From positions 44,539-108,538 of the forward strand of contig CAYGPN010000009.1 in NCBI GenBank assembly GCA_964352085.1: DNA of 64,000 nt. Direction: 5' to 3'. Within the stretch, counting starts at the first letter, position 1, and each line of letters starts with the position of its first letter. The notes under the pieces were generated by a model. The model was given only the letters and a program-made list of their open reading frames with translations, was not told the origin of the DNA and ran no database searches. The translations under genes were made by a program, and so were the position numbers. This document shows, piece after piece, positions 10,445 to 63,753 of the stretch. The DNA comes from an uncultured Gammaproteobacteria bacterium (GTDB taxonomy: Bacteria; Cyanobacteriota; Vampirovibrionia; LMEP-6097; CAYGPN01).

Positions 10445-10490
10445 TGGGGTCAGATCCGGACATCGGACATTTTAAGGAAAAACACTTAAA

Positions 10491-12354: not shown

Positions 12355-14181
12355 TTAACGAATAACGCCAGCAATATCTGCAACGAATTCTCTAGATATA
12401 GAATCAAAACCAGTAGTATTAATGTATTCAACATTTACTGAATTGGTAGCTTGATTAAGAGTAAGTCTTAAATTAGCTTTTGTAATATCAACCGCCGCGC
12501 CATCAACTAGTGGTGTAGGAGCGCCTATACCAAAATCAACAGTATTGTTTACTAGATTAACTTTAAGCGGGCATGGAGCAAAGTTATTAAACTTAAGTTC
12601 TCTAGCATCTGCGCCAAAAGCAATAGTATGAACTCTGTTTGCTTGAACTGCATCATTCGGATCAATTGTAAACTTATCAGTATTTAAAAGACCTTGATTA
12701 AGAATCACTGAGCCATTAGTACCCATTGCTGTTAACTCGCCGTTATTGTTTGTGATGTTTATATTATTAGGAGGGTTATTTCCACTTGTATCAGAAATTG
12801 TAACGTTGTTAGTAGTCACGTTATTTCCAACTGGAGTAATAGGCTGACCATTAACAATTAGTGTTCCAGGAATAACAACTGTAGGTGCTGGTGGATTACC
12901 GTTTTGACCATCACTACCAAGAACAATTTGATTGTCAGCTGTCGTAGTAGCGCCTGCTCCAATCGCTGTAGAGTTGTCATTCGATGCCGTAGCGCCTGCT
13001 CCAACTGCTGTTGAGCCCGTGCCTGATGCTGTAGCTGCTGAGCCTAGTGCTGTAGAGTTAGTGCCTGACGCTGTTGCACCATTGCCACCTAAAAGAGTAC
13101 TTGTTAAACCAGTACCAGCTCCAACATTAACGCCAGCAACCGACAAAGTTGTTGCCACTGTTGCAGCGCCTGTTGTATCTAAAGTAGTTACTGTTGCAGC
13201 AGCTGGGTTAGTTCCACCAATAACGGTGTTATCGATAGTACCGCCATCAATGTCTGCTGTAGTTGCTGTAAGGCTTGCTGTATTGCTTGATGTTGATGTC
13301 AAAGCACCAGCATTAGTTGTAGTAGCTGTAAGTGTTGTGAAGCTAGCATTAGCTGGAGTGTTTGCACCAATTACAGAATTATCAATACTAACGCCAGTTA
13401 AAGAACCACCTGTGATTGCAACATTAGATGAAGAAATTCCACCAGTAAAAGATGCGCCTGTAATTGCGCCTGTTACAGCAAGGTTACCGCTTGCATTTAA
13501 AGTTTCAGCAACTATTAAAGAACCGTTTACTGTAGTTGTGTTTCCAGCTGTTCCAATTGAGTTTAAATTATCTGCTGTTGTGATGTTTGGCTGAAGAGCA
13601 GCTACAGAAAGGTCTGGAGTCGTTGTACCATTAGTTACTGTAATAGAAGCGTCAGCTGAAGCTACAGAAGTGACTGAACCTCCTCCTCCACCGCCGCCAG
13701 CGTTAGCTTGAAAACTAGGAGCACTAACACCATTAGAAGTAAGAATCTGACCAGCTGTTCCGGGACCCACTAAAACAGGAGCGCCAGTATTATCAAAAGC
13801 AATTATTTGACCAGCTTGAAGAATATTAGTAGCAAAGTCAACTGCTTCAATATTAGTTAAAGCGTTACCAGTACCATTTGCGTCAAATGAAATATTAGTT
13901 AAAGGACCTTGGAAAAGAAAAGGATTACCTTCAAAAGTAAGAACACCATTAGCAGTATCAATAGTACCTAAACCATCAGCAATTGCTGCATCAGGTAATT
14001 GAAATGCTGTAGCCGAAAAACCATCTGGCGCATTTGAATTATCAAGCGTTGTTCCACCTGGTCCAGCAATGTTTTGCTGAAGCGTTGCATTGGCTGGCGC
14101 TGATACTAAAGTCAGTGACAGTATTGTTGACAGCAGAAAGCCACCAAATTTCTTATTTTGATTCTTTTTCATAATATTCAT
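12355..14181 (-). CDS. Secreted fibre/adhesin-like protein with phage tail-fibre-type repeats (GGxIDNxxIG…FTTL) and YadA-head-like NSTAxG repeats.
   Basis: Likely start is MNIMKKNQNKK at 14181 (GGGGAAAGGA RBS), with a signal peptide ending …VSAPANA. The track ORF extends further upstream to 14304. Gly7 run; repeats ITGGSLTGVSIDNSVIGANTPANASFTTL and IDGGTIDNTVIGGTNPAAATVTTL; NSTALGSAATASGTGSTAVGAGATASNDNSTAIGAGA. Confidence 0.55.
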   Translation of the reverse strand: MNIMKKNQNKKFGGFLLSTILSLTLVSAPANATLQQNIAGPGGTTLDNSNAPDGFSATAFQLPDAAIADGLGTIDTANGVLTFEGNPFLFQGPLTNISFDANGTGNALTNIEAVDFATNILQAGQIIAFDNTGAPVLVGPGTAGQILTSNGVSAPSFQANAGGGGGGGSVTSVASADASITVTNGTTTPDLSVAALQPNITTADNLNSIGTAGNTTTVNGSLIVAETLNASGNLAVTGAITGASFTGGISSSNVAITGGSLTGVSIDNSVIGANTPANASFTTLTATTTNAGALTSTSSNTASLTATTADIDGGTIDNTVIGGTNPAAATVTTLDTTGAATVATTLSVAGVNVGAGTGLTSTLLGGNGATASGTNSTALGSAATASGTGSTAVGAGATASNDNSTAIGAGATTTADNQIVLGSDGQNGNPPAPTVVIPGTLIVNGQPITPVGNNVTTNNVTISDTSGNNPPNNINITNNNGELTAMGTNGSVILNQGLLNTDKFTIDPNDAVQANRVHTIAFGADARELKFNNFAPCPLKVNLVNNTVDFGIGAPTPLVDGAAVDITKANLRLTLNQATNSVNVEYINTTGFDSISREFVADIAGVIR

Positions 14182-14230
14182 TTTCCTTTCCCCGTTATTC
14201 ATTCGATTTCTCCCCCTCACATTTAACTGT

Positions 14231-15652
14231 CTATTGAAGGACCTCCGTGCTGTAAACAGCAACTGGTGATTGTGGTGTAAACACTCCTGGGAATGATTCA
14301 ACATTAACTAAATTAAGAACACCATTTGCTATAAAAACTCTAAGAAGCATATCTTGAACTAAAAGTGATGTTCCAAGAGATGTTGGAGCTGTATTTAAGT
14401 TTGTTACTTGAGCTGTTAGAGGCAATTTAACATTAACCGGATTTCCGTTAGTATCTAATCCAATGATTAATTGCTCGTTGTTTAAAAGAACACCATTAGT
14501 AATAGTGATTCTTCTAGCAATTGCATTTGCACCATTGATGTTATTCAATGGAGTATTGAAAGCAACTGGATTAGTGTTAAGTGCTAAAGATTGTGTTTCG
14601 TTGTTTGTAACTGGATTATTATTTCCACCACCAGCAATTACACAATCACCAACATCTAAAGTACCGTTCCCATTCTGATCAGTAATTCCAGGAGCATCAA
14701 AACAATTTGCACCAGCTGCACCAGGAGCGCCTGTACCACCACTAGGACCAGCAGGACCAGGAGTTCCAGCACCACCAGAACCGCCGCCGCCTGTTACTAA
14801 AAGTGTTAAAGCTGCTTCAGAATTACTAGTGTTACCAAAAACTTGATTTGTGTCTGTTGCAAAGTAAATTGTTCCAGGAGCTACAGTCGCCGGTCTTTGT
14901 GCTGCTGTACCTGAAAGGAAATTTGTGCCACCTGTTGGATTAACTATTTCATTTTGAACGTTAATTACTCTACCTCTTAGCTTACTTGTTGTATTTTTAC
15001 CAGTAGCCTTAAAGTGAATATCAAATCTAGATCCTTCATCAGTCATTCTTGGAACAACACCATTAAATTTTGAAGGCACCATAGCCATCATCAAATGGTT
15101 AGGAAGTTTTCTAGCTATCTCGATGATCTGCTCATCGTTAAAATTATTTGTAAGTGCTGGACCACTAACATCAGAAACTGAAAGGTTACCATCTGGGAAA
15201 AATGTACCTGTAAAGCGTTCAACTGTTTTTCCGTTTTCACCAAGTAGAGTGAATTCATATTGGTTGCCAGACTGTCTTAGCCCCTTGAGAAGACCTCTAA
15301 CAACAATGTTATTTTTCTTAGAAGCTTTTACTGAAAAATCACCAACATTAATTTTAGAACCGTCATCCAAAATTTCTTTTACTTCAACAACAGGAACACT
15401 ATTTTCTGGAAGTCTAAGATTTTTTGCTCTTCTGATAACAAACTTTACTTGAGCTTCATCAGTACCATTAGCCTTTACAATGTTGTCTCTACCAACAAAT
15501 TGAAGTAAAACTCTTTGATCGTCCGGCACGCCGTTATTAGTTTGTAAGCCTTGAATACCTAGATCGATTACTCTTCTTGCAGAAGCTGGGCTAATTGCTA
15601 GGCCTGCGATGAGCGTGAAACTTAGAATTATAGATTGGAACTTTTTAAACAT
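14231..15652 (-). CDS. Secreted protein with a collagen-like Gly-X-Y segment and one Cys-bracketed DxNGNG calcium-binding-like motif.
   Basis: Signal peptide MFKKFQSIILSFTLIAGLAISPASA; GGGGSGGAGTPGPAGPSGGTGAPGAAGA followed by CFDAPGITDQNGNGTLDVGDC. Confidence 0.55.
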   Translation of the reverse strand: MFKKFQSIILSFTLIAGLAISPASARRVIDLGIQGLQTNNGVPDDQRVLLQFVGRDNIVKANGTDEAQVKFVIRRAKNLRLPENSVPVVEVKEILDDGSKINVGDFSVKASKKNNIVVRGLLKGLRQSGNQYEFTLLGENGKTVERFTGTFFPDGNLSVSDVSGPALTNNFNDEQIIEIARKLPNHLMMAMVPSKFNGVVPRMTDEGSRFDIHFKATGKNTTSKLRGRVINVQNEIVNPTGGTNFLSGTAAQRPATVAPGTIYFATDTNQVFGNTSNSEAALTLLVTGGGGSGGAGTPGPAGPSGGTGAPGAAGANCFDAPGITDQNGNGTLDVGDCVIAGGGNNNPVTNNETQSLALNTNPVAFNTPLNNINGANAIARRITITNGVLLNNEQLIIGLDTNGNPVNVKLPLTAQVTNLNTAPTSLGTSLLVQDMLLRVFIANGVLNLVNVESFPGVFTPQSPVAVYSTEVLQ

Positions 15653-25375: not shown

Positions 25376-26533
25376 TTATAAAACAGTAGCTAGCCTAGAC
25401 CAATGGCTAGTTTGAACATTATCAGAAATTTGAAAGGCTTCTTCCTTATTACAAAGCAAATAAGCTTTGGAATCTGGCTTAAGCTTCACAAAAGCCTCTA
25501 AAGATTTTCCATATTCTTTTTTTGGTGTTGCTGTGAGTTTCACTTCTGTTGCTATCACTTGCCCTTTATACTCAATTATAAAATCAACCTCTAAACCATT
25601 ATTGTCTCTAAAAAAATATATGCTTGGTTTTTTTCCTTGATGGTTAAAGAACTTAACAAGCTCACTTAAAACCAATCCCTCAAAAAGAGCTCCAGACATT
25701 GGTCCTTTTTGTATTTGCTCTTCACTTGCGTGCCCTGTAAGATGGCTTACTATTCCTGGATCCAAGAAATATAATTTTTGAGATTTCACTATACGCTTAC
25801 CTAAATTATTATGGTATGGAGGCACCAGATAAATTAATTGGCTTTTTTCTAATAAGGCAATCCAAGACTGAACTGTTAATTTGCTTACACCAAGCTCTTT
25901 TGATAGAGAAGCAAAATTCAATTCCTGAGAACTTCTTAGAGCTATTAATTTTATAAACTGGTCATAAACTTTTATATGCTCTTTTTTTATATTTGCTCTT
26001 ATATCCTTATTTAAAATTGTGTCAATGTAAGAATCAAACCATAATGTTCTATCCATTTCTTTAATATTAGGTTCTGGATACAATCCTTTAAGTACGATTT
26101 TAGACCAAAGTGGCACTTCTTTTGAATACAATTCTTGAACAGAGAAAGGATTTAAAGATAGAACAGCCATGCGCCCAGCAAGGCTTTCATGAACATCAGC
26201 CATTAGGTTAAATTGCTGCGATCCAGTAAGAACAAAAGCTCCTTCTTTTTGCTCATTATCAACTTTCTTTTTTATATATGAAAGTAAGTCAGGGGCGTTT
26301 TGAATTTCATCTATAATAAGCGGGCATTCATTATATTTTAAAAACAAGTCGGGGTCTTCATTTGCTTGCCTGCGTGTTTCTATATCATCCAAGCTCACAT
26401 AGTTATATTCTGGCAATATCGCTTTTAAAAGCGTAGATTTGCCAGACTGCCTAGCACCAGTTAATAAAATCACTTTAAACTGAGCGATTGCTTTTTTGAG
26501 AATATTTGAAAGATCTCTCTTAAAATATGGCAC
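25376..26533 (-). CDS. AAA+ ATPase of the COG1373/DUF4143 type with a C-terminal PD-(D/E)xK-like segment (paralog 1).
   Basis: Walker A TGARQSGKST, Walker B LIIDEIQ, and C-terminal …GLEVDFIIEYKGQVIATEVK. Confidence 0.6.
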   Translation of the reverse strand: MPYFKRDLSNILKKAIAQFKVILLTGARQSGKSTLLKAILPEYNYVSLDDIETRRQANEDPDLFLKYNECPLIIDEIQNAPDLLSYIKKKVDNEQKEGAFVLTGSQQFNLMADVHESLAGRMAVLSLNPFSVQELYSKEVPLWSKIVLKGLYPEPNIKEMDRTLWFDSYIDTILNKDIRANIKKEHIKVYDQFIKLIALRSSQELNFASLSKELGVSKLTVQSWIALLEKSQLIYLVPPYHNNLGKRIVKSQKLYFLDPGIVSHLTGHASEEQIQKGPMSGALFEGLVLSELVKFFNHQGKKPSIYFFRDNNGLEVDFIIEYKGQVIATEVKLTATPKKEYGKSLEAFVKLKPDSKAYLLCNKEEAFQISDNVQTSHWSRLATVL

Positions 26534-28078: not shown

Positions 28079-28420
28079 AGTTTATCTACAGATAGATTGC
28101 TTCGCTTCACTCGCAATGACGGTTTCTAGCCTTTATATTCAAATAGTTGCGTCATTACCAATAATAAAAGCCTTAAGAATACTGTAGAAAACTGTTTATA
28201 ACTTGTAGAAAAGTCTACAGAGAAAGTAGATAAAAATAGGCTCTTTTTCTATTAAAAATCGAAACTGTTCATAACTTTAAAACTGTAGAAAGTTTTCTAC
28301 ATCAATTCTCTAATACAGAAGCCCTCTTTGGGACTTATCTACAAAAACTTATTAGCCTACTACTACTTTTAATATATATAATCTATTGTTCTAATAGTAA
28401 GTATAAATATAAAAATCTCA
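28079..28420. promoter_or_regulatory. Cluster of DnaA-box-like 9-mers (TTATCTACA / TTTTCTACA, both orientations) followed by an AT-rich stretch, lying upstream of dnaN. Candidate oriC.
   Basis: TTATCTACA at 28082 and 28337. TGTAGAAAA (the reverse complement of TTTTCTACA) at about 28185 and 28205. TTTTCTACA at about 28295. CTTTCTACA as a reverse complement at about 28284. AT-rich aatatatataatctattgttctaatagtaagtataaatataaaaat at 28370-28420. Confidence 0.45.
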
Positions 28421-28508
28421 CAATTGGAGATTGTGTAGAATAGAGAGTGTTAAGGAGATGGGTGTTTAAATAAACACTATCCACCTGCACTAAAGAAAGA
28501 GACGGTTT

Positions 28509-29627
28509 ATGAAATTAAAAGTTCCCAAGTCAACATTAGATAAAGCATTAAAAGCTGTATGTCGAGCTGTACCAAATAAGGGGATTCAGCCGATTCTAAA
28601 TAATATTCTTTTAGAAAACAGTAACGGTCATTTGCTTTTAAATGCAACAGATTTGGATTTTTACATTGAAGCTAAAATCCCATCAACAAATATTGATCCT
28701 GGACGTATTACTCTTTCAGCTAAAAAATTAGAAGAAATAGTGGCTAAGCTTGATGACGATGATGTATCTATTGACGTGAATATTGGTACCAATGAAGCAA
28801 AGCTAGAGTGTAATAGCGCTCATTTTGATTTGCTTGGTATTTCTGCTGAAGATTTTCCTGAATTCAAAAAACCAACATCAGAAAACTTTTTTTCAGTTGA
28901 AGCTAGTAAACTGGCTAGAGCTCTTAATCTTGTAAGTTTTTCAGCATCTAGATTTGATATCAATAATATCTTAGGTGGTGTTTATATGTGCATCACTGAC
29001 GGGGTTTTAGAGCTTGCAGCAACTGATGGTAATAGACTTTCTAGTTATGAGTTAAAGCTTGAAAATGCGCCTACTGAGCTTGAAGGTAAAGAAGTTGTTG
29101 TGCCTGTTAAAGTGATTGACGAGGTTAATAAAATTATCGAAAGCAGCGTGGATGAAAATGTAGAAATTGCATTTTTAAACTCACAGATTGTAATCAAGAC
29201 AGAAGATAGGTTTGTGGTTTCTAGACTCCTTGATGGCGTTTATCCTAAATACAAACAACTTATACCGAAAGAGAGTGATAAGATCGCTCAACTTGATCGT
29301 AAGGCTTTTTATAGCTCACTTGAAAGAGTTGCTGTGATGGCAAATGAAAGAACTAATTTAGTTAAACTTAGCTTTAATGAAAATCTACTTGATATTCAAT
29401 CTAGTAATTTAGATCTTGGTGGCGCTGAGGATAATATGGAAGTTGAGTATATGGGAGAGCCAATAGATATCTTCTTTAACGTTAAATATATGCTTGAGGC
29501 TATTAAAAATATAAATTCTGAGAAGATACAAATCGCTATGACTAAATCATTAAGCCCAGCAATTATTAAGCCAATTTCTGAAGATAAGTTTATTTACCTC
29601 ATAATGCCTGTTAAATCAAAGGCTTAG
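28509..29627 (+). CDS. dnaN: DNA polymerase III beta sliding clamp.
   Basis: 372 aa. N-terminus MKLKVPKSTLDKALKAVCRAVPNKGIQPILNNILLE, a three-domain length, and C-terminus …PAIIKPI…YLIMPVK, all typical of DnaN. Confidence 0.75.
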   Translation: MKLKVPKSTLDKALKAVCRAVPNKGIQPILNNILLENSNGHLLLNATDLDFYIEAKIPSTNIDPGRITLSAKKLEEIVAKLDDDDVSIDVNIGTNEAKLECNSAHFDLLGISAEDFPEFKKPTSENFFSVEASKLARALNLVSFSASRFDINNILGGVYMCITDGVLELAATDGNRLSSYELKLENAPTELEGKEVVVPVKVIDEVNKIIESSVDENVEIAFLNSQIVIKTEDRFVVSRLLDGVYPKYKQLIPKESDKIAQLDRKAFYSSLERVAVMANERTNLVKLSFNENLLDIQSSNLDLGGAEDNMEVEYMGEPIDIFFNVKYMLEAIKNINSEKIQIAMTKSLSPAIIKPISEDKFIYLIMPVKSKA

Positions 29628-29628
29628 G

Positions 29629-29766
29629 GTCATTACGAGCAATTTTATGTCATTGCGAGTAAAGCGAAGCAATCCCATGGATCACCACGTCGCCTTTGGC
29701 TCCTCGTGATGACATGCTAGCTGAACTCCTCGTGATGACATGCTAGCTGCGCTCCTCGCAATGACG
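29629..29766. repeat. Intergenic palindromic repeat element cluster, with modules gtcattgcgag / gcgaagcaatcc / atggatcaccacg / ctcgtgatgac.
   Basis: Directly visible; shares modules with the loci at 40280, 41526, 49419, 61240 and 63569. Confidence 0.8.
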
Positions 29767-31552: not shown

Positions 31553-32455
31553 TTACAACCCTTCTTTCCTAGCTTCCCTGAGCTCTTTTCTTGTTATGCC
31601 AGTTTGACTAAGATCTGGTGTGCCTTTTGCTCCCATTTTTATTAATCTAAGAATCAAGCCTCTAGGACCATAGGAATCTTCTATATTAAATTTACGAATG
31701 AGTTCAGGTCTAAAAAATCTGAATCTCCTCATGTTTGTTCTAAAATCACTAAGATCTAAGCCTTTTAATGAAAATTTCTTATCACTATTTATAACTTCCT
31801 TATAAACATCTTCTAAGTTTATCCCTAAGGAATCTAAATCAACACCTCGGCTTTTTAAGAACAATAGAACATGAAGATGTTCATTGTCTGCAGCAAATAT
31901 AGCTGCAAGATTATCATCTGCAGAGAAATCAACACCCGGCTTGCCATCAAGAAACTCAAGAACATGAAGTTGCCCATAGAATGCAGTAAATATAGCTGTT
32001 TGATTATCACGTGCAGAAAAATCAACACCCGGCTTGCCATCAAGGAACTTAAGAACATTAAGATGTCCACTCGGAGCCGCCAATCTAATTGCTTCATTAT
32101 CATTTGCAGCAGGGTCTGCACCAGCAGAAAAAGCAAGTTTTACTTCTTCAAGATTTCCTCTTTTTGAATGTTCTATAAGAGCATTATCCTTATCTTCCTG
32201 GCTCATATTAATATATGGATTCTCTAATTTTCTAGAAGTCTTATTAGTATTAGAATCATCAGGAGGATCACTAGGTGGTGGATTGGCAGATCCTGTTGCA
32301 GAATTGGGTATATGGTGATGCAGTTCTTTTTTATTTATCTCATTTGGTTCTTTGGAAGAATCTGAAAAATGCTTTATACCTCCACCTGAATTTGCTGCAC
32401 TTATTGGTGGCGCGAATCTTTGTTCTATTTGGGCTTGGTATACCTCTAGACCCAT
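31553..32455 (-). CDS. Ankyrin-repeat protein with a Pro-rich N-terminus.
   Basis: Tandem ~33-aa repeats …GADPAANDNEAIRLAAPSGHLNVLKFLDGKPGVDFSARDNQTAIFTAFYGQLHVLEFLDGKPGVDFSADDNLAAIFAADNEHLHVLLFL… matching the ankyrin consensus (xxGxxxLHxAAxxGHxxVVxxLLxxGA). Confidence 0.6.
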   Translation of the reverse strand: MGLEVYQAQIEQRFAPPISAANSGGGIKHFSDSSKEPNEINKKELHHHIPNSATGSANPPPSDPPDDSNTNKTSRKLENPYINMSQEDKDNALIEHSKRGNLEEVKLAFSAGADPAANDNEAIRLAAPSGHLNVLKFLDGKPGVDFSARDNQTAIFTAFYGQLHVLEFLDGKPGVDFSADDNLAAIFAADNEHLHVLLFLKSRGVDLDSLGINLEDVYKEVINSDKKFSLKGLDLSDFRTNMRRFRFFRPELIRKFNIEDSYGPRGLILRLIKMGAKGTPDLSQTGITRKELREARKEGL

Positions 32456-32582: not shown

Positions 32583-33713
32583 ATGCATATAAACCGGGCT
32601 CTTAAAGTAGAGATAATCAGCAAGCTTAAAGATAGTAATAAAATAATCATCTTATATGGCCCCAGACAGATTGGTAAGACCACCCTGGCTAACAGGGTCA
32701 TTGAGGATCTTGGTTTTAGAACCTTAAGCATTAATGCTGATGAGCTTAAATATAATGAGATTCTTTCCAGTCGCGATTTAACTAAGCTCAAATCTTTAGT
32801 AAGCGGTTATGAATTGCTTTTTATAGATGAGGCACAAAGAATAAAAGATATAGGCATTAACCTAAAAATCCTTAAGGATAATTTAGCTGATTTGAAAATT
32901 ATAGTCACAGGTTCCTCAACTTTAGATTTAGCAAATGAACTAAAAGAACCTTTAACAGGAAGAACCTGGACCTATAATCTTTATCCAATATCTTTCCTTG
33001 AGTTGAAAGAGCATTTTAATGACTTTGAACTAAAAGAACAGCTAGAAGAGAAAATGATCTTCGGTCTTTACCCTGAGCTTTTTAGTATCGAAAACAGAGA
33101 AGAAAAAATTCAATATCTTGAAGAAATCAGCAGGTCTTATTTATATAAAGATGTCTTGGAGATTTCAAATATTAAGCATTCTTATAAGCTTAGAGATCTT
33201 CTTAAGTTGCTAGCTTTTCAGATAGGCTCAGAAGTCTCTCTCAATGAGCTTGGCAGACAATTAGATATGTCTAAAGAAACAGTAGCTAATTACATTAATC
33301 TTCTTGAGAAATCTTTTGTACTTTATAGATTGAGTGGTTTGAGCCGTAATCTTAGAAAAGAAGTCTCTAAAATGGATAAGATTTATTTTTATGATCTTGG
33401 TATAAGAAACATTCTTATAGATAATATGAAAGATCTTAAAGATAGAGATGATAAAGGAAAGCTTTTTGAGAATTTCTTAGTTATAGAACGTTTAAAACGA
33501 AATAAATACACAGCAAATTACTGTTCAGAGTATTTCTGGAGAATATATACTGGCGCTGAATTGGATTATGTAGAAGATAAAGATGGCAAATTTTCTGCTT
33601 ATGAATTTAAGTTTGCTAAAGAAAAAGCTAAAGTACCACAATCATGGCAAGAGGCTTATTCGGGTTCTTTTGAGCTTATTAATAAGGATAACTTCTTAGA
33701 ATTTATTCGCTAA
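32583..33713 (+). CDS. AAA+ ATPase of the COG1373/DUF4143 type with a C-terminal PD-(D/E)xK-like segment (paralog 2).
   Basis: Walker A YGPRQIGKTT, Walker B LLFIDEAQ, and C-terminal GAELDYVEDKDGKFSAYEFK. Confidence 0.6.
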   Translation: MHINRALKVEIISKLKDSNKIIILYGPRQIGKTTLANRVIEDLGFRTLSINADELKYNEILSSRDLTKLKSLVSGYELLFIDEAQRIKDIGINLKILKDNLADLKIIVTGSSTLDLANELKEPLTGRTWTYNLYPISFLELKEHFNDFELKEQLEEKMIFGLYPELFSIENREEKIQYLEEISRSYLYKDVLEISNIKHSYKLRDLLKLLAFQIGSEVSLNELGRQLDMSKETVANYINLLEKSFVLYRLSGLSRNLRKEVSKMDKIYFYDLGIRNILIDNMKDLKDRDDKGKLFENFLVIERLKRNKYTANYCSEYFWRIYTGAELDYVEDKDGKFSAYEFKFAKEKAKVPQSWQEAYSGSFELINKDNFLEFIR

Positions 33714-39566: not shown

Positions 39567-40274
39567 ATGGCGAAAGAAACTAAAAGACAAAAAGCAATTA
39601 AAGAACTAGCAACAGCTAATCAGGGCTCAAGTCCTGCTGAAGCAATTAAGACGCTAAAAGAATTTTGCAAAGGTCAAAAATTTGACCACACAATTGAGCT
39701 AGCTGTTCAACTTGGTATCGATACTAAAATGAGTGACCAGCAAGTTCGTTCATCTATTCCACTTCCGGCTGGAACTGGTAAAAAAGTTAGTATCGCTGTT
39801 ATCGCTAAAGGTGAGAAAGTTGCTGAAGCGAAAGAAGCTGGCGCTGAGTTTGTTGGTTTCGAAGATCTTATTAAGAAAATTGAAGGCGGATGGATGGACT
39901 TTGATGTTCTAGTTGTAACTCCTGATGCTATGGCTCAGGTTGGTAAACTTGGTAGAACTCTTGGACCTCGTGGTCTTATGCCTAACCCTAAAGATGGCAC
40001 AGTTACTATGGATATTAAAAAAGCTGTAACTGAGCTTCAAGCAGGTAAAGCGCAGGTTCGTGCTGAGAAAACAGGCTCTGTAGTTCATGTTCCTATCGGT
40101 AAAGCAAGCTTCTCTGAAGAAGACCTAGCTAAGAATTACTCTGCCGTTATGTCTGAAATCCAGAAGAATAAGCCAGCTTCAGCTAAAGGCACTTACCTGA
40201 AATCAGTAGCTCTTAGCAGCACTCATGGACCTGGGATTTCAATAGCTTCTGATAAAGCACTAGTTACCGCTTAA
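39567..40274 (+). CDS. rplA: 50S ribosomal protein L1.
   Basis: 235 aa, follows rplK. …VDVLVVTPDAMAQVGKLGRTLGPRGLMPNPKDGTVT… is the L1 signature. Confidence 0.85.
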   Translation: MAKETKRQKAIKELATANQGSSPAEAIKTLKEFCKGQKFDHTIELAVQLGIDTKMSDQQVRSSIPLPAGTGKKVSIAVIAKGEKVAEAKEAGAEFVGFEDLIKKIEGGWMDFDVLVVTPDAMAQVGKLGRTLGPRGLMPNPKDGTVTMDIKKAVTELQAGKAQVRAEKTGSVVHVPIGKASFSEEDLAKNYSAVMSEIQKNKPASAKGTYLKSVALSSTHGPGISIASDKALVTA

Positions 40275-40279
40275 TTCCC

Positions 40280-40340
40280 GTCATTGCGAGCCCGAAGGGT
40301 GAAGCAATCCATAGATCACCACGCTTCGCTCGTGATGACA
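40280..40340. repeat. Single copy of the ~60-bp palindromic repeat element (reverse orientation) between rplA and the phosphatase-like gene.
   Basis: gtcattgcgagcccgaagggtgaagcaatccatagatcaccacgcttcgctcgtgatgaca is the reverse complement of the unit at 41526-41736. Confidence 0.8.
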
Positions 40341-40456: not shown

Positions 40457-41524
40457 ATGGCAATTGGTGTAGCAAGTCAAATAAAACCCACGCCTCAAGT
40501 AATGGGGATGCAAGAGCTTCTTGCAAATCCTAACTTTGATTTTTCAAAAATTGATCCTGAGATTTTAAAATCTCTGCCTCCTTTAGATCCTGCGCAGCTT
40601 CATCAGTTTTCAAATTTAGATTTATCAGAAGCCTCATCATCAATTTCAAACACGGACTTAACAGGGAGGACAAAGTCTGAAGCTCTTAAAGATATAAATA
40701 TTGCACCTAAATCTCAGATACCGAAAGGGTCTGAGATTATTACTTTTGATTTAGATGAAACTCTTATCTCATGTAACAAACTTACTAACGCTATGAAGAA
40801 AGCCGGTCAGAAGCTCGGCTATAAACTTTATAAATCTAAAGAAGGTAGTGAGTTTTTTGTAAGACCTGGTGCTGAAGAGCTTCTTAAATGGATTAAAGAT
40901 CAAGGTTTTAAGATAGTAGTTTCAAGTCGTAATTTTGAAAAGTATGAAGATGATATTTTAGCAAGTTGTGGTTTGGGTCAGTATGTGGACTACACTACTG
41001 GACATATGGATTTAGTTGAGTCAGCTAAAGCTGCTGACAAAAAGAAATTTCCTAATCATCCTAATAATAAATTAGGAATACTTACTTGGTCAGGAAGAGT
41101 TACCCACTCTGTCTTTAAAGGAATTTTTAAAGATACTTTGTGGCGTGGTTTTAAGCACTATGTTTTAAGAGACCAAAATATCAAACCATATTTCCCTGTT
41201 GCAGCTTGGCGTAATAATAAATATCCACCGTATCTAAGCGGGTCTAGAGTTTTGATAGATAATCTTTATGAAGAAACTCTTATTAACAGTAAAGCTTCAG
41301 AAGATTGGGTTGCACTTAACCCTGGTGAATTCTATGGTGATAAAGAAGAGCCTAAGAATAAAGATGGCGAATATACTTGGGTGGCTAATATTAAAAAAGG
41401 TCTGAATATTCAGAAGAACCAAGGCTGGAAAGCCCTGTATGAACGTGAGTATCATAAAAAACCAATAGATGATAAGGTTCCACTTGCTGAGCAAGCTAAA
41501 GCCGAGCCTAAGATTAAAGTTTAA
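40457..41524 (+). CDS. HAD-superfamily phosphatase of the FCP1/NIF (NLI-interacting factor, CTD-phosphatase-like) type, with an N-terminal extension.
   Basis: Motif I ITFDLDETLIS (DxDxT with Leu-Asp-Glu-Thr-Leu as in FCP1-homology domains), then FFVRPGAEELLKWIKDQGFKIVVSSRN (motif II Ser/Thr region) and later Lys/Asp-containing segments. This domain type is mainly eukaryotic. Confidence 0.5.
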   Translation: MAIGVASQIKPTPQVMGMQELLANPNFDFSKIDPEILKSLPPLDPAQLHQFSNLDLSEASSSISNTDLTGRTKSEALKDINIAPKSQIPKGSEIITFDLDETLISCNKLTNAMKKAGQKLGYKLYKSKEGSEFFVRPGAEELLKWIKDQGFKIVVSSRNFEKYEDDILASCGLGQYVDYTTGHMDLVESAKAADKKKFPNHPNNKLGILTWSGRVTHSVFKGIFKDTLWRGFKHYVLRDQNIKPYFPVAAWRNNKYPPYLSGSRVLIDNLYEETLINSKASEDWVALNPGEFYGDKEEPKNKDGEYTWVANIKKGLNIQKNQGWKALYEREYHKKPIDDKVPLAEQAKAEPKIKV

Positions 41525-41525
41525 A

Positions 41526-41736
41526 GCCATCACGAGTGAAGCGTGGTGATCTATGGATTGCTTCACCCTTCGGGCTCGCAATGACAACCCGTCATCACGA
41601 GCGAAGCGTGGTGATCCATGGATTGCTTCACCCTTCGGGCTCGCAATGACAACCCGTCATCACGAGTGAAGCGTGGTGATCTATGGATTGCTTCACCCTT
41701 CGGGCTTGCAATGACGGGGCTATGCTCGCAATGACA
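41526..41736. repeat. Three tandem copies of the ~60-bp palindromic repeat unit (gtcatcacgagYgaagcgtggtgatcYatggattgcttcacccttcgggctYgcaatgac) separated by aacc.
   Basis: Directly visible. Each unit is an imperfect palindrome (gtcatcacgagcgaagcg … cgcttcgctcgtgatgac in the reverse-complement sense). Confidence 0.85.
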
Positions 41737-41737
41737 C

Positions 41738-43312
41738 TTAAAAAACTTCTAAAATAATCTGACTATCTATAAAACCACTATCAGTGTCTGTTGCAGTCAC
41801 AGTGATTTGAGCTCCTTCAGTTAAAAAGTCAGGAAATTCATCAAGGAAATCACTAAGAGGCGCAAATGTGGCAGTAATTTTTTTATATAATTTACGTTTG
41901 CCTATTTTAAAACTCTCTTTATTAAAGCTAATTAAATCCGGAGAGCTTGAGCTAAGACTTAGTCTCACTGTTTTCTTTTTAAATGGTTTAATTTTAGTAA
42001 ATTTAATTTTAGAAGTCACTTCATCAAAATCACCAACTAGAGTTGAGTTATTTACTGCTTTGCCGCTAGCTTTAAAACTTCTTTTAATTGCATCAGGGTC
42101 AGTACCTGGCATCCCACCATTAGTAGCACCACCCAAGTTAATAGTTGTTAGTTGTCCAGCATTAATAGTTATTTGCTGAGCGTTATTAAGAGCGTCTTCT
42201 AAGCTGACATCTAAAAGAGCCTCACCTGTTCCATTAAAAAATCCAGTAGTAAAAGAACTAGGATTTTTAGGTGGAGCTACAGGACCTACTGAAGATGCAC
42301 CTGTAAATTCGCTAAAGATTGGCTCAACTTTTAAAATATAGTTGCCAGGAGGCAAGCCTGGGATTATAAATTCAGCGTTTCCAGTTGTAAAGAGATCTAC
42401 AACGCTAGAAACAGCCAGAGCAGTGTTATCTACATTAAAAGCAATTACATTACCGCCAGTTAAAGCATTACTGTTAGAATCTCTAGCTTCGCCTCTAAGT
42501 GTTCCAAACTCTGTCATAAAATCAGTTTCGGCGTAAGCAGCTGGGGAAGAAACAGAAACAACATCATCTAGAAGTAGAGTGAAACCTGGATTTGCAAGAA
42601 TGGGAAACATGATTGGTATGTTTGATAAGTTCGAGGGTTGACCATTACGTCTTTTTAAAAACTCCTCTAAGAAAACTTGAGTGTGGTCTAAGCCAATTGC
42701 ATGTCCAAATTCGTGAAGAACAGTTGATTTAAAATTATTTGTATTTGTAACAGAAGTCTCACCAAAAAGATTAGATAAGGTAAAAAGAAAACCATTAAAA
42801 GCTGCTTGTGACTCGACTATTATTTCTGAACTTGGTGATATGAAAGTCGGTCCAGCAAAGCCAAGCACACTTGCCTTAGACCCTTGACCAAAGAAGCTTT
42901 CGAAGATCTCCCCATCATCATCAAAAACTATAGGTGTAAAACCTAAAGTACCATTAGGTGAAAGAATGGACTGGAAATTAGTTTCATTAATATCAGAGCT
43001 CAAAGTACCTTGATTTAGAAAATTGATTTTAGAAGTTTCCACATTATTCCAAGTAGCTAGAATATCGTTTGTAAGCATTTGCGGGTTGACAAGGTCGCCT
43101 AAAGGACCTTGATCGTTTCTATAAAGTACATTAACAACTGTGCCGCTGCTTGGGAAAGTGGGATAGAACTTTTGAGAGTCTGAACAATTTGAACCTCCAT
43201 TTGGGCAGGCTGCTAAAAGTCCAGCAGCTTTTGCTTCGCTCACAAAATTAGCAAAGGACAAAACAAATATAAGGAAAGCTAAAAATCTTAGCGATAAGGG
43301 CTTGAGGAGCAT
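41738..43312 (-). CDS. Secreted zinc metalloprotease of the metzincin type (HExxHxxGxxH plus Met-turn).
   Basis: Signal peptide; HEFGHAIGLDHTQ and a downstream IMFPIL Met-turn. Paralogous to 43322-44533. Confidence 0.6.
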   Translation of the reverse strand: MLLKPLSLRFLAFLIFVLSFANFVSEAKAAGLLAACPNGGSNCSDSQKFYPTFPSSGTVVNVLYRNDQGPLGDLVNPQMLTNDILATWNNVETSKINFLNQGTLSSDINETNFQSILSPNGTLGFTPIVFDDDGEIFESFFGQGSKASVLGFAGPTFISPSSEIIVESQAAFNGFLFTLSNLFGETSVTNTNNFKSTVLHEFGHAIGLDHTQVFLEEFLKRRNGQPSNLSNIPIMFPILANPGFTLLLDDVVSVSSPAAYAETDFMTEFGTLRGEARDSNSNALTGGNVIAFNVDNTALAVSSVVDLFTTGNAEFIIPGLPPGNYILKVEPIFSEFTGASSVGPVAPPKNPSSFTTGFFNGTGEALLDVSLEDALNNAQQITINAGQLTTINLGGATNGGMPGTDPDAIKRSFKASGKAVNNSTLVGDFDEVTSKIKFTKIKPFKKKTVRLSLSSSSPDLISFNKESFKIGKRKLYKKITATFAPLSDFLDEFPDFLTEGAQITVTATDTDSGFIDSQIILEVF

Positions 43313-48543: not shown

Positions 48544-49416
48544 ATGCACTTAGAATTACCAAAAGAAAAAGTATCTTCTAAGGTGCAGACTATTATTAAA
48601 GTGATTCTAGGATTTAATATCCTGGTTTTTCTAATGAAACTTTATATTGGAATAACAGCCCAATCACTTAGTATTCTTGGTGATGCTGCTCATTCCGGTG
48701 TTGATAGTTTAAATAATGTTTTGGGTTTAGCTATGGTCTATATAGCATCGCAGCCTCCTGATAGAGAACATCCTTATGGTCATGAGAAATTTGAGACACT
48801 GGGTGCTATAGCAATTGTTGCTTTTTTAGGTGTTGCATCTTTTGAGTTGATTGAAAAATCAATTATGAGATTTTTGCATCCAGCGGAGCTTCCTATTATT
48901 GATAAAACGACTATCATCTTTTTATTAATTACTTTAGTTATTAATATCTTTGTTTGGCTTTATGAGAAAAATGCTGGGCATAAATATAACTCAGAGTTTT
49001 TAAAGGCAGATGCTGAGCATACTTTTTCTGATATTTTAATTACACTTTCTATTCTTGCAAGTACTTACTTTATTCTTAAAGGCTATTATTTTTTAGATCC
49101 TCTTCTTGGGATATTAATTGCATTTATCATTTTAAGAAGCGCTTTTGAGATTGCTCAAAGAACAGTGCCAATTTTAGTGGATGAGTTTTGGATTGATCCT
49201 GAAGAGCTTGAAAAGATAGCGATGTCCGTTAACAAGGTGGCTGAATGTGAGGATATTAAATCTAGAAAAAGTCATTTAGATGGTTTTATAGAAATGACAG
49301 TGAAGTTCAGGACTGATTCTTTGGTTGAAGCTCATAAGCTTAGTCATGAAATAGAACATAAAATCCATGAGAAACACGGTGATTGTCTGGTTACTATTCA
49401 TATAGAGCCTGTTTAG
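48544..49416 (+). CDS. Cation diffusion facilitator family transporter.
   Basis: HSGVDSLNN…PPDREHPYGHEKFE signature, six TM helices and a C-terminal cytoplasmic domain. Confidence 0.7.
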   Translation: MHLELPKEKVSSKVQTIIKVILGFNILVFLMKLYIGITAQSLSILGDAAHSGVDSLNNVLGLAMVYIASQPPDREHPYGHEKFETLGAIAIVAFLGVASFELIEKSIMRFLHPAELPIIDKTTIIFLLITLVINIFVWLYEKNAGHKYNSEFLKADAEHTFSDILITLSILASTYFILKGYYFLDPLLGILIAFIILRSAFEIAQRTVPILVDEFWIDPEELEKIAMSVNKVAECEDIKSRKSHLDGFIEMTVKFRTDSLVEAHKLSHEIEHKIHEKHGDCLVTIHIEPV

Positions 49417-49418
49417 TT

Positions 49419-49540
49419 GTCATTGCGAGCACGGAATTGTCATTGCGAGCAGAGCGAAGCAATCCATGGATCACCACGTCGCCTTTGGCTTCTCGTGATG
49501 ACAATGCGTCATTGCGAGCAGAGCGAAGCAATCCAGCGAG
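49419..49540. repeat. Two copies of a palindromic repeat element variant (gtcattgcgagcagagcgaagcaatcc…).
   Basis: Directly visible; same modules as the other loci. The ORF-track ORF at 49383-49586 is a translation artefact of this repeat. Confidence 0.8.
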
Positions 49541-58662: not shown

Positions 58663-59877
58663 ATGAAATCAATAAAAAGAGAAATTAACCAAGATATTTT
58701 AAAATATCTTGGAAACGATCAAATACTGCTTTTAATTGGTGCAAGGCAGGTAGGTAAGACTACAATTCTGAGGCAGATCAAGACTCATCTAGAAGTTCAA
58801 AGCTTGCAGACTCATTTTATTAATTTAGAAGATCCAGAGTACTTAGCATTAATAAATGAATCACCTAAAAATCTTTTTAAAATATTGTCTATAAATCTAG
58901 AAAGTAAATCTTATATTTTTATAGACGAGATTCAGTATCTAGATAATCCTAGTAATTTTTTGAAATATTTTTATGATGAATACGGCGAGAAAATGAAGCT
59001 TATAGTTTCAGGTTCTTCTGCCTTTTATATAGACTCAAAATTTCAAGATTCGTTAGCTGGAAGAAAAAAGATCTTTTATGTGCGCAACTTGTCATTTAGT
59101 GAATTTCTATTATTTAAAGACCAAGAAGCATTATCTAAAAAAAGCTATATCTCTTTAAGTCTTAAAGAGAAAGACATAGTGCAGCGTGCTTTTGAGGAGT
59201 ATCTTGTCTATGGAGGCTATCCTAGAGTGGCTCTAAGCTCTGATCTTGAAGAGAAAAAAGAGATTTTAAGAGAGCTTGCTTACTCATATATTAAAAAAGA
59301 TATTTTTGAATCAAAAATTAAAGATGATAAGTCTTTTTATGCTTTGATGAGAATTCTGGCTGACCAAGTAGGCTCACTAGTTAATTCAAATGAACTGGCG
59401 TCTACCCTAGCTATTTCCAAGTCTAGTGTTGATAACTATCTAAATATCTTGCAGAAATCTTTTCATATATTTTTAGTGAAACCTTTTAGTAAAAACATAC
59501 GTAAAGAGCTTACTAAAATGCCTAAAGTCTATTTTGCTGATATGGGCTTGAGGAATTTTCTGGTGCGCGACTTTGAGCCATATGCTCTTAGAAGTGATAA
59601 AGGAGAGCTTTTAGAGAATATAGTTTTTAGGAAACTTTTAGATACTAATCATCATGAGGATATTATGTTTTGGAGAACTGCTGAAAAGCAAGAGCTAGAC
59701 TTTGTCTTGCAGGATAAAGCTGCAATTGAAGTTAAGGCTAATCCAGAAAAGTTTAATGTCAAAAAATACCAAAAATTTATAGAAGTTTATCCGGAAAAAG
59801 AGCTTAGTTTGGTTTCTTATGATTACAAAGGCTCTGCAGACTTTCCGGTTAAATATAAAGATGTTTTAGAGCTTTAA
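58663..59877 (+). CDS. AAA+ ATPase of the COG1373/DUF4143 type with a C-terminal PD-(D/E)xK-like segment (paralog 3).
   Basis: Walker A IGARQVGKTT, Walker B IFIDEIQ, and C-terminal QELDFVLQDKAAIEVK. Confidence 0.6.
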   Translation: MKSIKREINQDILKYLGNDQILLLIGARQVGKTTILRQIKTHLEVQSLQTHFINLEDPEYLALINESPKNLFKILSINLESKSYIFIDEIQYLDNPSNFLKYFYDEYGEKMKLIVSGSSAFYIDSKFQDSLAGRKKIFYVRNLSFSEFLLFKDQEALSKKSYISLSLKEKDIVQRAFEEYLVYGGYPRVALSSDLEEKKEILRELAYSYIKKDIFESKIKDDKSFYALMRILADQVGSLVNSNELASTLAISKSSVDNYLNILQKSFHIFLVKPFSKNIRKELTKMPKVYFADMGLRNFLVRDFEPYALRSDKGELLENIVFRKLLDTNHHEDIMFWRTAEKQELDFVLQDKAAIEVKANPEKFNVKKYQKFIEVYPEKELSLVSYDYKGSADFPVKYKDVLEL

Positions 59878-61239: not shown

Positions 61240-61267
61240 GGATTGCTTCGCTTTACTCGCAATGACA
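61240..61267. repeat. Partial copy of the palindromic repeat element (ggattgcttcgctttactcgcaatgaca).
   Basis: Matches the 3' half of the unit; lies between leuC and the chaperonin gene. Confidence 0.7.
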
Positions 61268-61270
61268 GGC

Positions 61271-62851
61271 TTAAACATTTCTAGCTTGCAGCACTGTATT
61301 AATTTTTAAGATTTGACAAGCAATCTCTGAAGCGATTTTAAAAGCATTAATCTTTACCTCTAAAGGATCTAATATCCCAGCTTCAAGTAAATTTATAATT
61401 CCGCCAGTCTCTAGGTCATAGCCAGCCACTGATTTATTAGCTTTTAGACTGATGTTTTGTCCATTTAAAATAGTTTCGAGCATTAGCTCTGAATCAAAAC
61501 CAGCGTTCTCTACTATCTGATTGAACAAAGCAGCAAGGCTGTGTTTCACAATTTCCATTCCAGCTATTACGTCTTCTTGGTATAACTTTTCTTTATTAGA
61601 TTTCGCTATTAATTTATCTAATGGTCTGATTGCATTAAGCTCAGCAATGCCTTCACCCAGCACAAAACCAGATCTGTAAGCAGCTTGCATAGCTTTCGCT
61701 GCGTCAATAGCTATGCGTTCTTTTTCATTAGCTAAAACAGATGTTTCTGCTGAAATTAAAACTGTTGGTAGGTAAAATTTATCGCCCTCTATGCTAATTC
61801 CACCAAGCTCAGCTTCTAGATTTAATTTTTTAATTTTACCGCTTAGTTTTTTTACTGCTTCAGCTGATGTTATATTAAAAAGATTTTGCCTAGTTAGCAT
61901 TTTAGTCCCTGAGCATAGTGCTATAGCTTTTAAATCTTGTTTTTGTATTTGAGTTAAAACAAAAATGCCTTCTTTTACAAAATACTCTTCGATATTTTGG
62001 TACATAGAAGCATCTACAAAAACCGCTTTGACTCCAGCTTTAGCAATAGTCTTAGCTGTTTCTCTTATTACTTGAATGTTGTTTGAAAATTTCTTAACGC
62101 CCTCATCAGTTGTTACTGACTCCGGTGGAACTGCTTCAGGCTCAAAAGCACCCTCAATTACCAAAACAGAAATATCTTTAAAGGTTTTATAGTCATAATT
62201 AAAATGACTTTTCTTTTTAACGAATAATCCATCTATGATTTTAGTTTCATGACCCGGGTAAGCTTTAATCAAAGTAGAAAAATCAAAACTTTTATCTATA
62301 AAAAAGTCTTCACCGTGTTTTTTGTTTTTCTTTAATAGCTTGGATGCTGCATTGATGACAGTTTCAGCTATCTTTTTTTCATTCCTTGCTGAAATAAGAG
62401 TGAGTGCTAGAAGATTTTCATCATCTATGCCCTCTATTTTTTGTGCTTGTTTTTTCAAATCATCTAAAACGCTTTTAAGCCCAAGTTCAATACCTCTAAT
62501 GAGTCTAGTAGCTGAAATCCCTGATCTAATTCTGTAAAGTGCTTCAGTTAATAATGCATCAGTTAGAATCGTTGCTGTAGTAGTGCCATCACCTACTTTA
62601 GATTCTTGAGCCTTCGCTACTTCTATAGCTAATTTAGCAGCAGGGTGACTAAGTTCTATTTTAGAAAGAATCTCAACACCATCATTTGTGCAAGAATAAT
62701 CGCCGTATTGATCAACTAGCATAACGTCTAAACCCTTAGGACCAACAGTTCCGCGAATTGTTGCAGCTAAAGATTGAATTGCAGCGATATTAGAACTAAG
62801 AATTTCTATATAGCTATTTTGGATATTTTCGCTTCTTTTGTTATTTTCCAT
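61271..62851 (-). CDS. Group II chaperonin (thermosome/CCT-like Cpn60), not GroEL.
   Basis: [13 protein letters not shown] (compare thermosome TLGPKGMDKMLVD), …[44 protein letters not shown]… (compare …[43 protein letters not shown]…). Confidence 0.75.
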   Translation of the reverse strand: [526 protein letters not shown]

Positions 62852-63508: not shown

Positions 63509-63534
63509 ACAAGTATAGGAAAGTGAGGTTCATA

Positions 63535-63563
63535 AAGATCGGGTGAAAACCCGATCTTTTTTT
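63535..63563 (+). terminator. Rho-independent terminator (aaagatcggg-tgaaaa-cccgatcttt plus a T7 run).
   Basis: Perfect 10-bp stem, 6-nt loop and a T-run, directly after the stop of the 63014-63508 ORF. Confidence 0.7.
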
Positions 63564-63568
63564 GCGTT

Positions 63569-63753
63569 GTCATCACGAGCGAAGTGTGTTGTCATCACGA
63601 GCGAAGCGTGTTGTCATCACGAGCGAAGCGTGTCGTCATCACGAGCGAAGCGTGTCGTCATCACGAGCGAAGCGTGGTGATCCCATGGATTGCTTCGCCA
63701 GTAGGCTCGCAATGACAGCTAGGCTCGCAATGACAGCTAGGCCCGCAATGACA
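63569..63753. repeat. Tandem array of five 22-bp units (tYgtcatcacgagcgaagYgtg), one palindromic core, then three units of ctaggcYcgcaatgaca. It is a repeat-element variant with no spacers.
   Basis: Directly visible. The unit is half of the palindromic element found elsewhere. Confidence 0.85.

Follow-up and report, generated by a model that had tools for sequence, protein, structure and literature searches.

CGTC-tagged REP-like hairpin doublets, probably mobile, at seven intergenic loci of a Melainabacteria-type bacterium

The window analyzed here, a 64-kb stretch of DNA (64,000 nucleotides; positions 44,539 to 108,538 of contig CAYGPN010000009.1) with a GC content of 36%, carries a family of short palindromic repeats, spread over seven intergenic loci from 28 to 64 kb, next to genes such as dnaN, rplA and a chaperonin gene. 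The DnaN protein encoded in the window is closest to proteins named Caenarcaniphilales, Cyanobacteria MAG (metagenome-assembled genome), and Vampirovibrio, so that the host is a Melainabacteria-type (Caenarcaniphilales-like) bacterium. A unit-by-unit parse resolved the repeats into 17 complete units, ten of a type designated X and seven of a type designated Y (41685-41715 being counted despite one mismatch in its 11-nt head), and 11 fragments consisting of a head only; the chance expectation for such units in the window is none. The repeats are distributed as follows.

28094-28121, minus strand: single complete X unit (CGTC tag, ATTGC:GCAAT stem) in the APS kinase to dnaN gap, at the edge of the probable oriC
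29628-29766: dnaN cluster, starting 1 nt 3' of the dnaN stop
29629-29639, plus strand: head-only repeat of the dnaN cluster
29649-29675, plus strand, joined to 29679-29713, minus strand: X unit and Y unit of the dnaN cluster
29729-29739 and 29755-29765, minus strand: two more head-only repeats of the dnaN cluster, 26-bp period
40279-40340: compact head-to-head heterodimer 5 nt 3' of the rplA stop, with X at 40280-40310 (plus strand) and Y at 40313-40339 (minus strand)
41526-41585: array copy 1, with Y at 41526-41552 (plus strand, tag decayed to AGCC) and X at 41555-41585 (minus strand)
41591-41650: array copy 2, the reference 60-mer, with Y at 41591-41617 (plus strand) and X at 41620-41650 (minus strand)
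41656-41736: array copy 3, with Y at 41656-41682 (plus strand), X at 41685-41715 (minus strand, head CTTGCAATGAC) and a head-only X at 41725-41735 (minus strand)
49418-49534: cation-efflux cluster, 2 nt 3' of the cation-efflux gene stop
49419-49429, plus strand: head-only repeat of the cation-efflux cluster
49439-49465, plus strand, joined to 49468-49502, minus strand: X unit and Y unit of the cation-efflux cluster
49508-49534, plus strand: single X unit of the cation-efflux cluster
61240-61267, minus strand: single X unit 3 nt 3' of the chaperonin gene stop
63566-63753: array beginning just 3' of the intrinsic terminator 63534-63559, with four head-only Y repeats (22-bp period), then Y at 63657-63683 (plus strand) joined to X at 63687-63716 (minus strand), and at the far end two head-only X repeats (18-bp period)

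Each complete unit is 27-35 nt long and reads (C/T)GTC, AT-NN-C, GAG, mini-hairpin, GNN, G-N'N'-AT, CC(A). An unpaired (C/T)GTC tag is followed by a 5-bp outer helix (A-T-N-N-C : G-N'-N'-A-T), a conserved, purine-rich internal loop with GA on its 5' side and GAA, GTG or GCG on its 3' side, and an inner helix of 2-5 bp closed by a three-base loop, usually GNA, and a CC(A) tail completes the unit. The X type reads GTCATTGCGAG-(inner)-GAAGCAATCC with the stem ATTGC:GCAAT, the Y type is GTCATCACGAG-(inner)-GTGGTGATCC with the stem ATCAC:GTGAT, and the two differ by a compensated two-base change in the 5-bp outer helix. The hairpin formed by the inner segment is small and varies in length (e.g., CGNAGC, CCGAAGGC, GCCCGTAGGGC or GCACTAAGTGC), reaching 43-52 nt in Bradyrhizobium. 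The 28 heads of the window carry the tags TGTC (17), CGTC (9), GGTC (1), and AGCC (1), and the tails of its units are CCA, CCC or CTA. Among 758 units from other genomes, the tag has at position -1 a C in 62-69% and a T in 25-31%, and 474 of 637 units have an A after the CC of the tail.

The initial annotation had described an imperfect palindrome of about 60 bp built from four short modules. This anatomy needs to be redrawn: its first and fourth modules are one and the same 11-mer in two orientations, and its second and third modules are the 3' arms and tails of the two unit types. The 60-bp "unit" is two different hairpin units placed tail to tail with their tags outward, a head-to-head heterodimer. 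Every Y unit of the window is partnered in this way with an X unit across a 2-3-nt spacer, giving seven heterodimers, all tags-outward and none tags-inward, and leaving three X units single. The copy at 28095-28120, previously taken to be partial, is one of these complete single units. The repeat family itself was recovered as described, at seven intergenic loci and in both orientations. The 11-mer GTCATYRCGAG has 25 exact matches in the window, every one of them inside the seven loci and none in 1-27 kb, and the reference 60-mer has four matches at up to three mismatches, one of them inverted (40280-40339, the rplA heterodimer, a single mismatch from 41591-41650), compared with none in 100 shuffles. 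The three tandem copies reported at 41526-41736 are likewise present: direct reading of 41400-41860 shows three head-to-tail copies with a 65-bp period directly 3' of the stop codon at 41522-41524 and, after them, an additional CTCGCAATGAC, and Tandem Repeats Finder (TRF) reports a 65-bp period repeated 2.9 times at 41528-41715 (95% matches, score 355). Further arrays found by this program are 22 bp x 5 at 63566-63676, 18 bp x 2.9 at 63702-63753, and 26 bp x 2.5 at 29700-29765.

The units fold, and covariation over hundreds of copies from many phyla supports both helices. Counting only units that lie outside the selection imposed by our scan pattern, the variable dinucleotides of the outer helix are complementary in 204 units in six different combinations (TG:CA 173, CG:CG 14, CA:TG 9, GG:CC 6, CC:GG 1, and TC:GA 1) and non-complementary in about 20. 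The structure ...(((((..(((((...)))))...))))).. was scored on 77 distinct 33-nt units, in which 87.9% of cells pair and six of the ten pairs vary on both sides; double-change cells number 125 against 38.5 in shuffles, a value reached by none of 500 shuffles, and pairing falls to 17-63% once the partners are slid. The first stem positions are A-T and T-A in all 77 of these units and in all 17 complete units of the window, a count owed in part to the requirement of AT ahead of CC during extraction. About a quarter of the inner-helix cells hold tandem G.A/A.G mismatches, the loop is GNA in 58 of the 77 units, and in the commonest inner helix, GGAGC-GAA-GCGAC, tandem G.A/A.G takes the place of the Watson-Crick pairs found in other copies. 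The mini-hairpin d(GCGAAGC) and its relatives with GNA loops are unusually stable as DNA. The complementary strand would have C.T mismatches and TNC loops, so it is the tag strand that folds well. The fold check suggested for the 60-bp unit gave a predicted -12.2 kcal/mol as DNA and -22.9 kcal/mol as RNA for the reference 60-mer. Since the tag strands of a doublet lie on opposite DNA strands, a role at the DNA level would appear to fit better than a role in mRNA, and each DNA strand of a doublet would present one good hairpin.

These features place the window repeats very probably among the CGTC-tagged repetitive extragenic palindromes (REPs), one of two superfamilies, GTAG- and CGTC-tagged, into which REPs were divided by Di Nocera, De Gregorio and Rocco (2013, BMC Genomics 14:522, PMC3733652). 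In that account, CGTC repeats have a terminal CGTC, often TGTC or CCTC, an 8-9-bp stem that opens with complementary A-T residues, a 4-5-nt loop, and a CCA tail. They form mainly tags-outward dimers, often heterodimers, near the 3' ends of genes, with tags-inward dimers being rare, and, unlike GTAG REPs, no transposase flanked by them was found. The window units agree in the tag, the A-T/T-A start of the stem, the CC(A) tail, the outward dimers with frequent heterodimers, the placement at the 3' ends of genes within unidirectional or convergent gaps, and the lack of a linked transposase. Their doublets have spacers of 2-3 nt, and four of the seven loci are clusters, an arrangement that Di Nocera et al. 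describe as rare among CGTC repeats. The known CGTC repeats come from five phyla, chiefly Alphaproteobacteria, with cyanobacteria listed for GTAG repeats only, and the host phylum of the window is outside those five. The outer part, CGTC-ATTGC...GCAAT-CCA, appears to match the CGTC-3 unit of R. palustris, as deduced from the listed peptide VIAGLDPAIH. The string ATTGCGAG is absent from the supplements of Di Nocera et al., who note that their search may have missed bulged units; loops of Bradyrhizobium CGTC-1 are reported there to vary. The window repeats are thus best described as superfamily members with a variant, interrupted stem in a new host group, a subtype that may or may not already be listed in that paper.

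The resemblance to REP, Correia and Rickettsia palindromic element (RPE) families proposed in the initial annotation holds for the first and the last. ATGAC, which ends every unit of the window, is a hallmark of Rickettsia RPE-4/6/7 (Rickettsia japonica paper); RPE-6 and Neisseria dRS3 are classified as CGTC-1 and RPE-4 as CGTC-4 (PMC3733652), and the X unit of the window was found in four Rickettsiales genomes (L033, L088, L113, and L114). Compared by description, Rickettsia RPEs differ in being 95-136 bp long and often inserted in frame within genes, while the window copies are all intergenic and form a 60-bp doublet. The window units resemble REP doublets forming hairpins (REPINs), mobilized by REP-associated tyrosine transposases (RAYTs; Bertels and Rainey 2011, PMC3116915), in their inverted hairpin doublets, conserved foot tetranucleotide, intergenic dispersal, and singlet and cluster derivatives; they differ in carrying CGTC/TGTC rather than GTAG (GTRG) tags and in that no RAYT was found in the window. 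A Correia-like identity, or that of a classical miniature inverted-repeat transposable element derived from an insertion sequence (IS), was considered and rejected, as the clean empty dnaN site, the chaperonin site and flanks in other genomes showed no terminal inverted repeats bounded by a target duplication of fixed length. Correia elements are defined by terminal repeats and target duplication, and for want of this structure they are a poor comparison for the window repeats. The bacterial interspersed mosaic elements (BIMEs) of E. coli, built as mosaics of Y- and Z-type units, likewise have two unit types that alternate in orientation and cluster at gene ends, but they are unrelated in sequence and carry GTAG tags. 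In enterobacterial GTAG-3 dimers, units with different loops are always combined (PMC3733652).

Comparison with related genomes, as the initial annotation had advised, shows that gene order is kept and that the relatives are free of the repeats. Their proteins are 60-77% identical to those of the window, the orders APS kinase-dnaN-PBP-like, rplA-phosphatase-peptidase, and chaperonin-aconitase-family are preserved, and no heads were found in about 78 kb of relatives L363-L366 and L368-L370. The clearest case is dnaN, where L363 reads tccTA|AGTTAGAATATATATATTGTGG and the window reads gctTA[140 bp]AGTTAGAATATATATATTGTGG, a precise 140-bp insertion (at greater length, tccTA|AGTTAGAATATATATATTGTGGCTGAAGA in L363 and gctTA[GGGTCATTACGAG...CAATGACG]AGTTAGAATATATATATTGTGGCTGAAGA in the window). 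Under the simplest alignment this insertion has no duplication, and the third base of the stop codon comes from the insert. In L366 the phosphatase and peptidase genes overlap by 8 nt and have no repeat between them; in the window the same genes are 213 bp apart, and this distance consists entirely of repeat. The X unit at 28094 is missing from the orthologous gap of L363-L365, the cation-efflux cluster at 49418 is missing 3' of the orthologue in L366, and the X unit at 61240 is missing from the orthologous gap of L369 and from L370. At the position of array 63566-63753, which in the window comes after a conserved terminator, L369 carries a different palindromic element of ~75 bp (~5230-5310; CTGGGGTCAGACCAGATTAAGAAA...TTTCTTAATCTGGTCTGACCCCAG). 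No target-site duplication was seen at the clean empty dnaN site or at the chaperonin site, and flanks in other genomes have no direct repeat and often prolong the palindrome instead. A duplication of TTAG/TTAA at two loci was considered and set aside, as it can be read only by assuming extra indels where the simplest alignment gives none. Judged from these alignments, the elements were inserted in this lineage after its split from the relatives that lack them, and the insertions were likely the result of transposition-like events.

Near-identical copies at unlinked sites, taken together with the clean empty site in a relative, point to a family that was mobile once these lineages had separated. 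The X 27-mer is identical at 29649-29675 and 61240, the Y 27-mer at 41591 and 63657, and the X 31-mer at 40280, 41555 and 41620, so that identical units are found up to 32 kb apart and in both orientations. An assembly artefact or purely local replication slippage could be invoked for the tandem arrays present at several loci, and short-read contigs do break at the repeats: L367, a 1,246-bp contig from six samples, begins and ends within them, as is expected of multi-copy DNA. Two independent Logan assemblies from other runs (L001 and L002), however, carry the cluster downstream of dnaN head for head, and units are present in hundreds of unrelated public contigs, as well as at the distant positions just given, making an artefact or slippage barely credible as an explanation.

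Of the seven loci, six occupy unidirectional gaps and the seventh a convergent one; the nine divergent gaps are all free of elements. Five begin 1-5 nt 3' of a stop codon (dnaN 1, rplA 5, HAD/NIF phosphatase 1, cation-efflux 2, and Cpn60/TCP1-type chaperonin 3), and the array beginning 1 nt after the phosphatase gene runs to within 1 nt of the stop codon of the convergent gene 41738-43312. The earlier statement that all copies lie immediately after stop codons or in short gaps is therefore accurate for these five and does not extend to locus 28094, which is 55 nt 3' of the APS kinase stop in a 469-bp gap, or to locus 63566, which directly follows a genuine terminator hairpin (63534-63559). GC-rich hairpins at gene ends in a genome of 36% GC could be repetitive intrinsic (Rho-independent) terminators, a function the initial annotation had also proposed. 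This is highly improbable, as no element is followed by a T-tract and none was called by a terminator scan that does call the canonical terminator just upstream of array 63566-63753.

Elements so placed might instead be kept for their action in RNA, their 3'-UTR (untranslated region) hairpins shielding the upstream mRNA from 3' exonucleases or damping read-through, as proposed for E. coli REPs. Besides the close spacing to stop codons and the restriction to unidirectional and convergent gaps, this would be consistent with the predicted folding of two doublets as RNA (-22.9 and -27.2 kcal/mol, z = -2.5 and -4.4), and Di Nocera et al. argue likewise from location (PMC3733652). Relatives, however, lack the elements at all orthologous sites examined, inner-helix mismatches (G.T 14, A.C 9) show no clear asymmetry of the RNA type, and just one unit of each doublet can be transcribed in the sense of the well-folding tag strand. 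In addition, little transcript is expected at the array that follows the genuine terminator, and the head-only tandem fragments have no hairpin. Rfam gave no match in the window at the gathering score and only chance-level matches (E about 1-10) when the array was searched at E up to 10; among 16 element-bearing loci it found only RNase P, elsewhere in L088. We consider selection for an RNA role unlikely, and an effect on neighboring mRNAs is probably a by-product.

The genes beside the repeats tend to share a particular ending. Six genes have a tag no more than 5 nt from the stop codon, and five of these terminate in G-Y-T followed by TAA or TAG (29622-29627, 40269-40274, 41519-41524, 49411-49416, and 61271-61276), compared with one of 47 other genes, for a Fisher value of ~1e-5 that is post hoc, the pattern having been picked after inspection. 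Where relatives permit a check, namely for rplA and the efflux gene in L366 and the chaperonin gene in L370 (both element-free), the Val/Ala codon represents the ancestral state, which argues that it was not brought in by the element. The element-free 27 kb of the window has no gene ending in GYT-stop. As a general target motif the pattern finds no counterpart elsewhere: 758 flanks from other genomes show just pyrimidine richness beside the tag and no GYT-stop flank, and 19 other non-coding GYTTAR sites in the window are unoccupied, which counts against a simple DNA target.

Confinement to this window, which the initial annotation had named as a refutation, is contradicted by a wide measure. 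A scan of one genome per species with the pattern GTCATTGCGAG-N3-10-GAAGCAATCC returned at least 120 matches, and the hosts among the matches listed include Bradyrhizobium, sphingomonads, Legionellales, Coxiellaceae, Rickettsiales, Bacteroidota, Helicobacter rodentium, Zixibacteria, Chloroflexota, Fibrobacter, Parcubacteria, a Bacillota MAG, Thermoanaerobaculia, Calothrix, and a Melainabacteria MAG. Also among the matches listed, the X pattern is abundant in viral contigs of IMG/VR and the Y pattern in metagenomes. A forward head is followed by a reverse head 62-170 bp on in 83 cases, mostly at 78-85 bp, which corresponds to a tags-outward doublet with a longer spacer; spacers of 2-3 nt were seen only in the window, most other genomes having 19-25 nt. 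Parsing of the fetched loci gave 155 tags-outward dimers, of which 108 are X/X and 34 X/Y, and none of 41 Y-containing dimers is Y/Y. This fits the idea of Di Nocera et al. (PMC3733652) that heterodimers may avoid a long perfect palindrome. A BLAST search of PLSDB with the consensus doublet found only Novosphingobium and Methylosinus megaplasmids, with no annotated feature beneath the matches, and the 11-mers and 12-mers searched in published full texts match unrelated primers only.

At least three viral contigs have units between portal, major head, terminase, head-closure and tail-fiber genes, which shows that phages carry the elements and suggests that they could move them between hosts. 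The IMG/VR contigs concerned are as follows.

L149, 8244-10612: CGTC units among phage structural genes
L177, 2397-10251: CGTC units among phage structural genes, with 11 heads in 10.4 kb of the contig
L231, 542-2462: CGTC units among phage structural genes

IS110/IS1111-type elements and filamentous phages target REPs or Neisseria dRS3, and gyrase and IHF bind E. coli BIMEs. The window repeats might similarly be docking sites for other mobile DNA or for host proteins, their spread being secondary. In keeping with such a role, units occur in phage genomes, a GTAG REP of Coxiella serves as insertion site for IS1111, the CGTC superfamily includes dRS3, and Di Nocera et al. (PMC3733652) cite the targeting of E. 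coli REPs by gyrase. Yet none of the seven loci has an IS, an integrase or a prophage end beside it, and the multiplication of the units themselves would be left unexplained; we regard docking as quite improbable.

Our preferred reading, which we hold to be likely, is that the elements are short, non-coding, selfish palindromic CGTC-tagged REPs. By inference, they would be copied in trans as single-stranded DNA hairpins: a trans-acting enzyme would read the tag and the hairpin on single-stranded DNA and copy the doublet, and arrays of whole doublets and lone heads would arise later by local slippage or by abortive cleavage and joining. The models for such an enzyme are the RAYT/IS200-type HUH transposases that act on GTAG REPs and REPINs, and IS200/IS605; by this analogy an HUH-type enzyme might copy the window elements, a proposal that we advance tentatively. 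More doubtful still is a narrower version, in which an actively spreading, cross-phylum, phage-borne element would be mobilized by an unrecognized non-RAYT enzyme and would home to GYT-stop gene ends, of which five of six in the window are occupied.

Several observations weigh against copying in trans or against membership in the CGTC superfamily. No transposase, RAYT included, was detected among 54 open reading frames (ORFs) of the window scanned against Pfam, as the initial annotation had indicated for RAYT-like proteins, and the Y1 transposase domain of RAYTs (PF01797) is absent from both the 64-kb window and 7 kb beyond it. An all-against-all BLASTP comparison of 3,916 ORFs from 120 genome loci revealed no gene family recurring beside the units, returning only generic families and spurious ORFs that span the repeats. 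Autonomous copies were also sought: the ten genes tightly bracketed by outward heads are those for an ATP-grasp protein, a permease, an IPP transferase, a phage capsid protein, a phage DUF6712 protein, and unknowns, with no transposase among them. Because none was found in the window, at the 120 loci, or by Di Nocera et al., a trans-acting HUH enzyme is put forward purely by analogy. The 8-9-bp continuous stem and 4-5-nt loop of published CGTC repeats are replaced in the window by a 5-bp helix, a GA/GNN internal loop, 2-5 bp, and a three-base loop. The distribution is patchy, with 34 kb (window positions 1-27 kb and 7 kb of L371 to the left) devoid of elements, and there is one clean empty site, so that the finding of no target duplication is from a single alignment.

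The neighborhood of the repeats has additional features of interest. The gap at 28130-28500 upstream of dnaN has repeated TGTAGAAAA/TTTTCTACA boxes (TRF 28176-28212; inverted pair at 28183 and 28286), and boxes similar to these are conserved in relatives L363-L365; this gap is probably a replication origin with DnaA boxes, with the REP at 28094 on its edge. The HAD/NIF-like (CTD-phosphatase-like) gene at 40457-41524 (plus strand) directly follows rplK-rplA, has repeats on either side, and has just five homologues at E <1e-20 among 5.8 billion proteins. The Cpn60/TCP1-family chaperonin encoded at 61271-62851 (minus strand) is 60% identical to its nearest relatives, and some of its more distant matches are labeled "archaeal chaperonin"; this bacterial protein may be of a group II-like kind. 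Three paralogous ATPase genes with AAA_14 and DUF4143 domains are located at 25376-26533 (minus strand), 32583-33713 (plus strand), and 58663-59877 (plus strand); this family is multi-copy in the element-free L364, L369 and L371 and thus does not track the repeats. An ankyrin-repeat ORF at 31553-32455 (minus strand) includes a 93-bp tandem repeat (31836-32109, 2.6 copies, ~80% identity). The element-free left part of the window contains an adhesin-like ORF with YadA head repeats at 12355-14304 (minus strand), with a 42-bp tandem repeat at 12947-13074, and two adjacent pentapeptide-repeat ORFs (8566-10444, plus strand). The core GGGGTCAGAYC occurs at or beside two convergent gene junctions of the window (4091-4103 and 10446-10456), with three matches against 0.3 expected. 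No tRNAs were found in the window.

In conclusion, CGTC REPs have been orphans since 2013, being widespread and structurally like the REPs mobilized by RAYTs, with no linked enzyme, and Di Nocera et al. considered them perhaps to be heading for extinction (PMC3733652). The window records a lineage-specific and fairly recent burst in a phylum-level group that is not on the published list, and the presence of the 27-nt unit in Parcubacteria, Chloroflexota, Fibrobacterota, Zixibacteria, Campylobacterota, Bacillota, cyanobacteria and Melainabacteria extends the host range far past the five published phyla, with phage-borne units offering a route for spread. The units are also of practical concern for annotation, since they break short-read assemblies and seed spurious small ORFs. 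These findings do not overturn the current understanding of CGTC repeats; they sharpen the open question of what mobilizes them. Should the narrower and more doubtful reading of a phage-borne element with an unrecognized non-RAYT enzyme hold, the small Caenarcaniphilales genome would be a tractable place in which to find the CGTC mobilizing enzyme by elimination.

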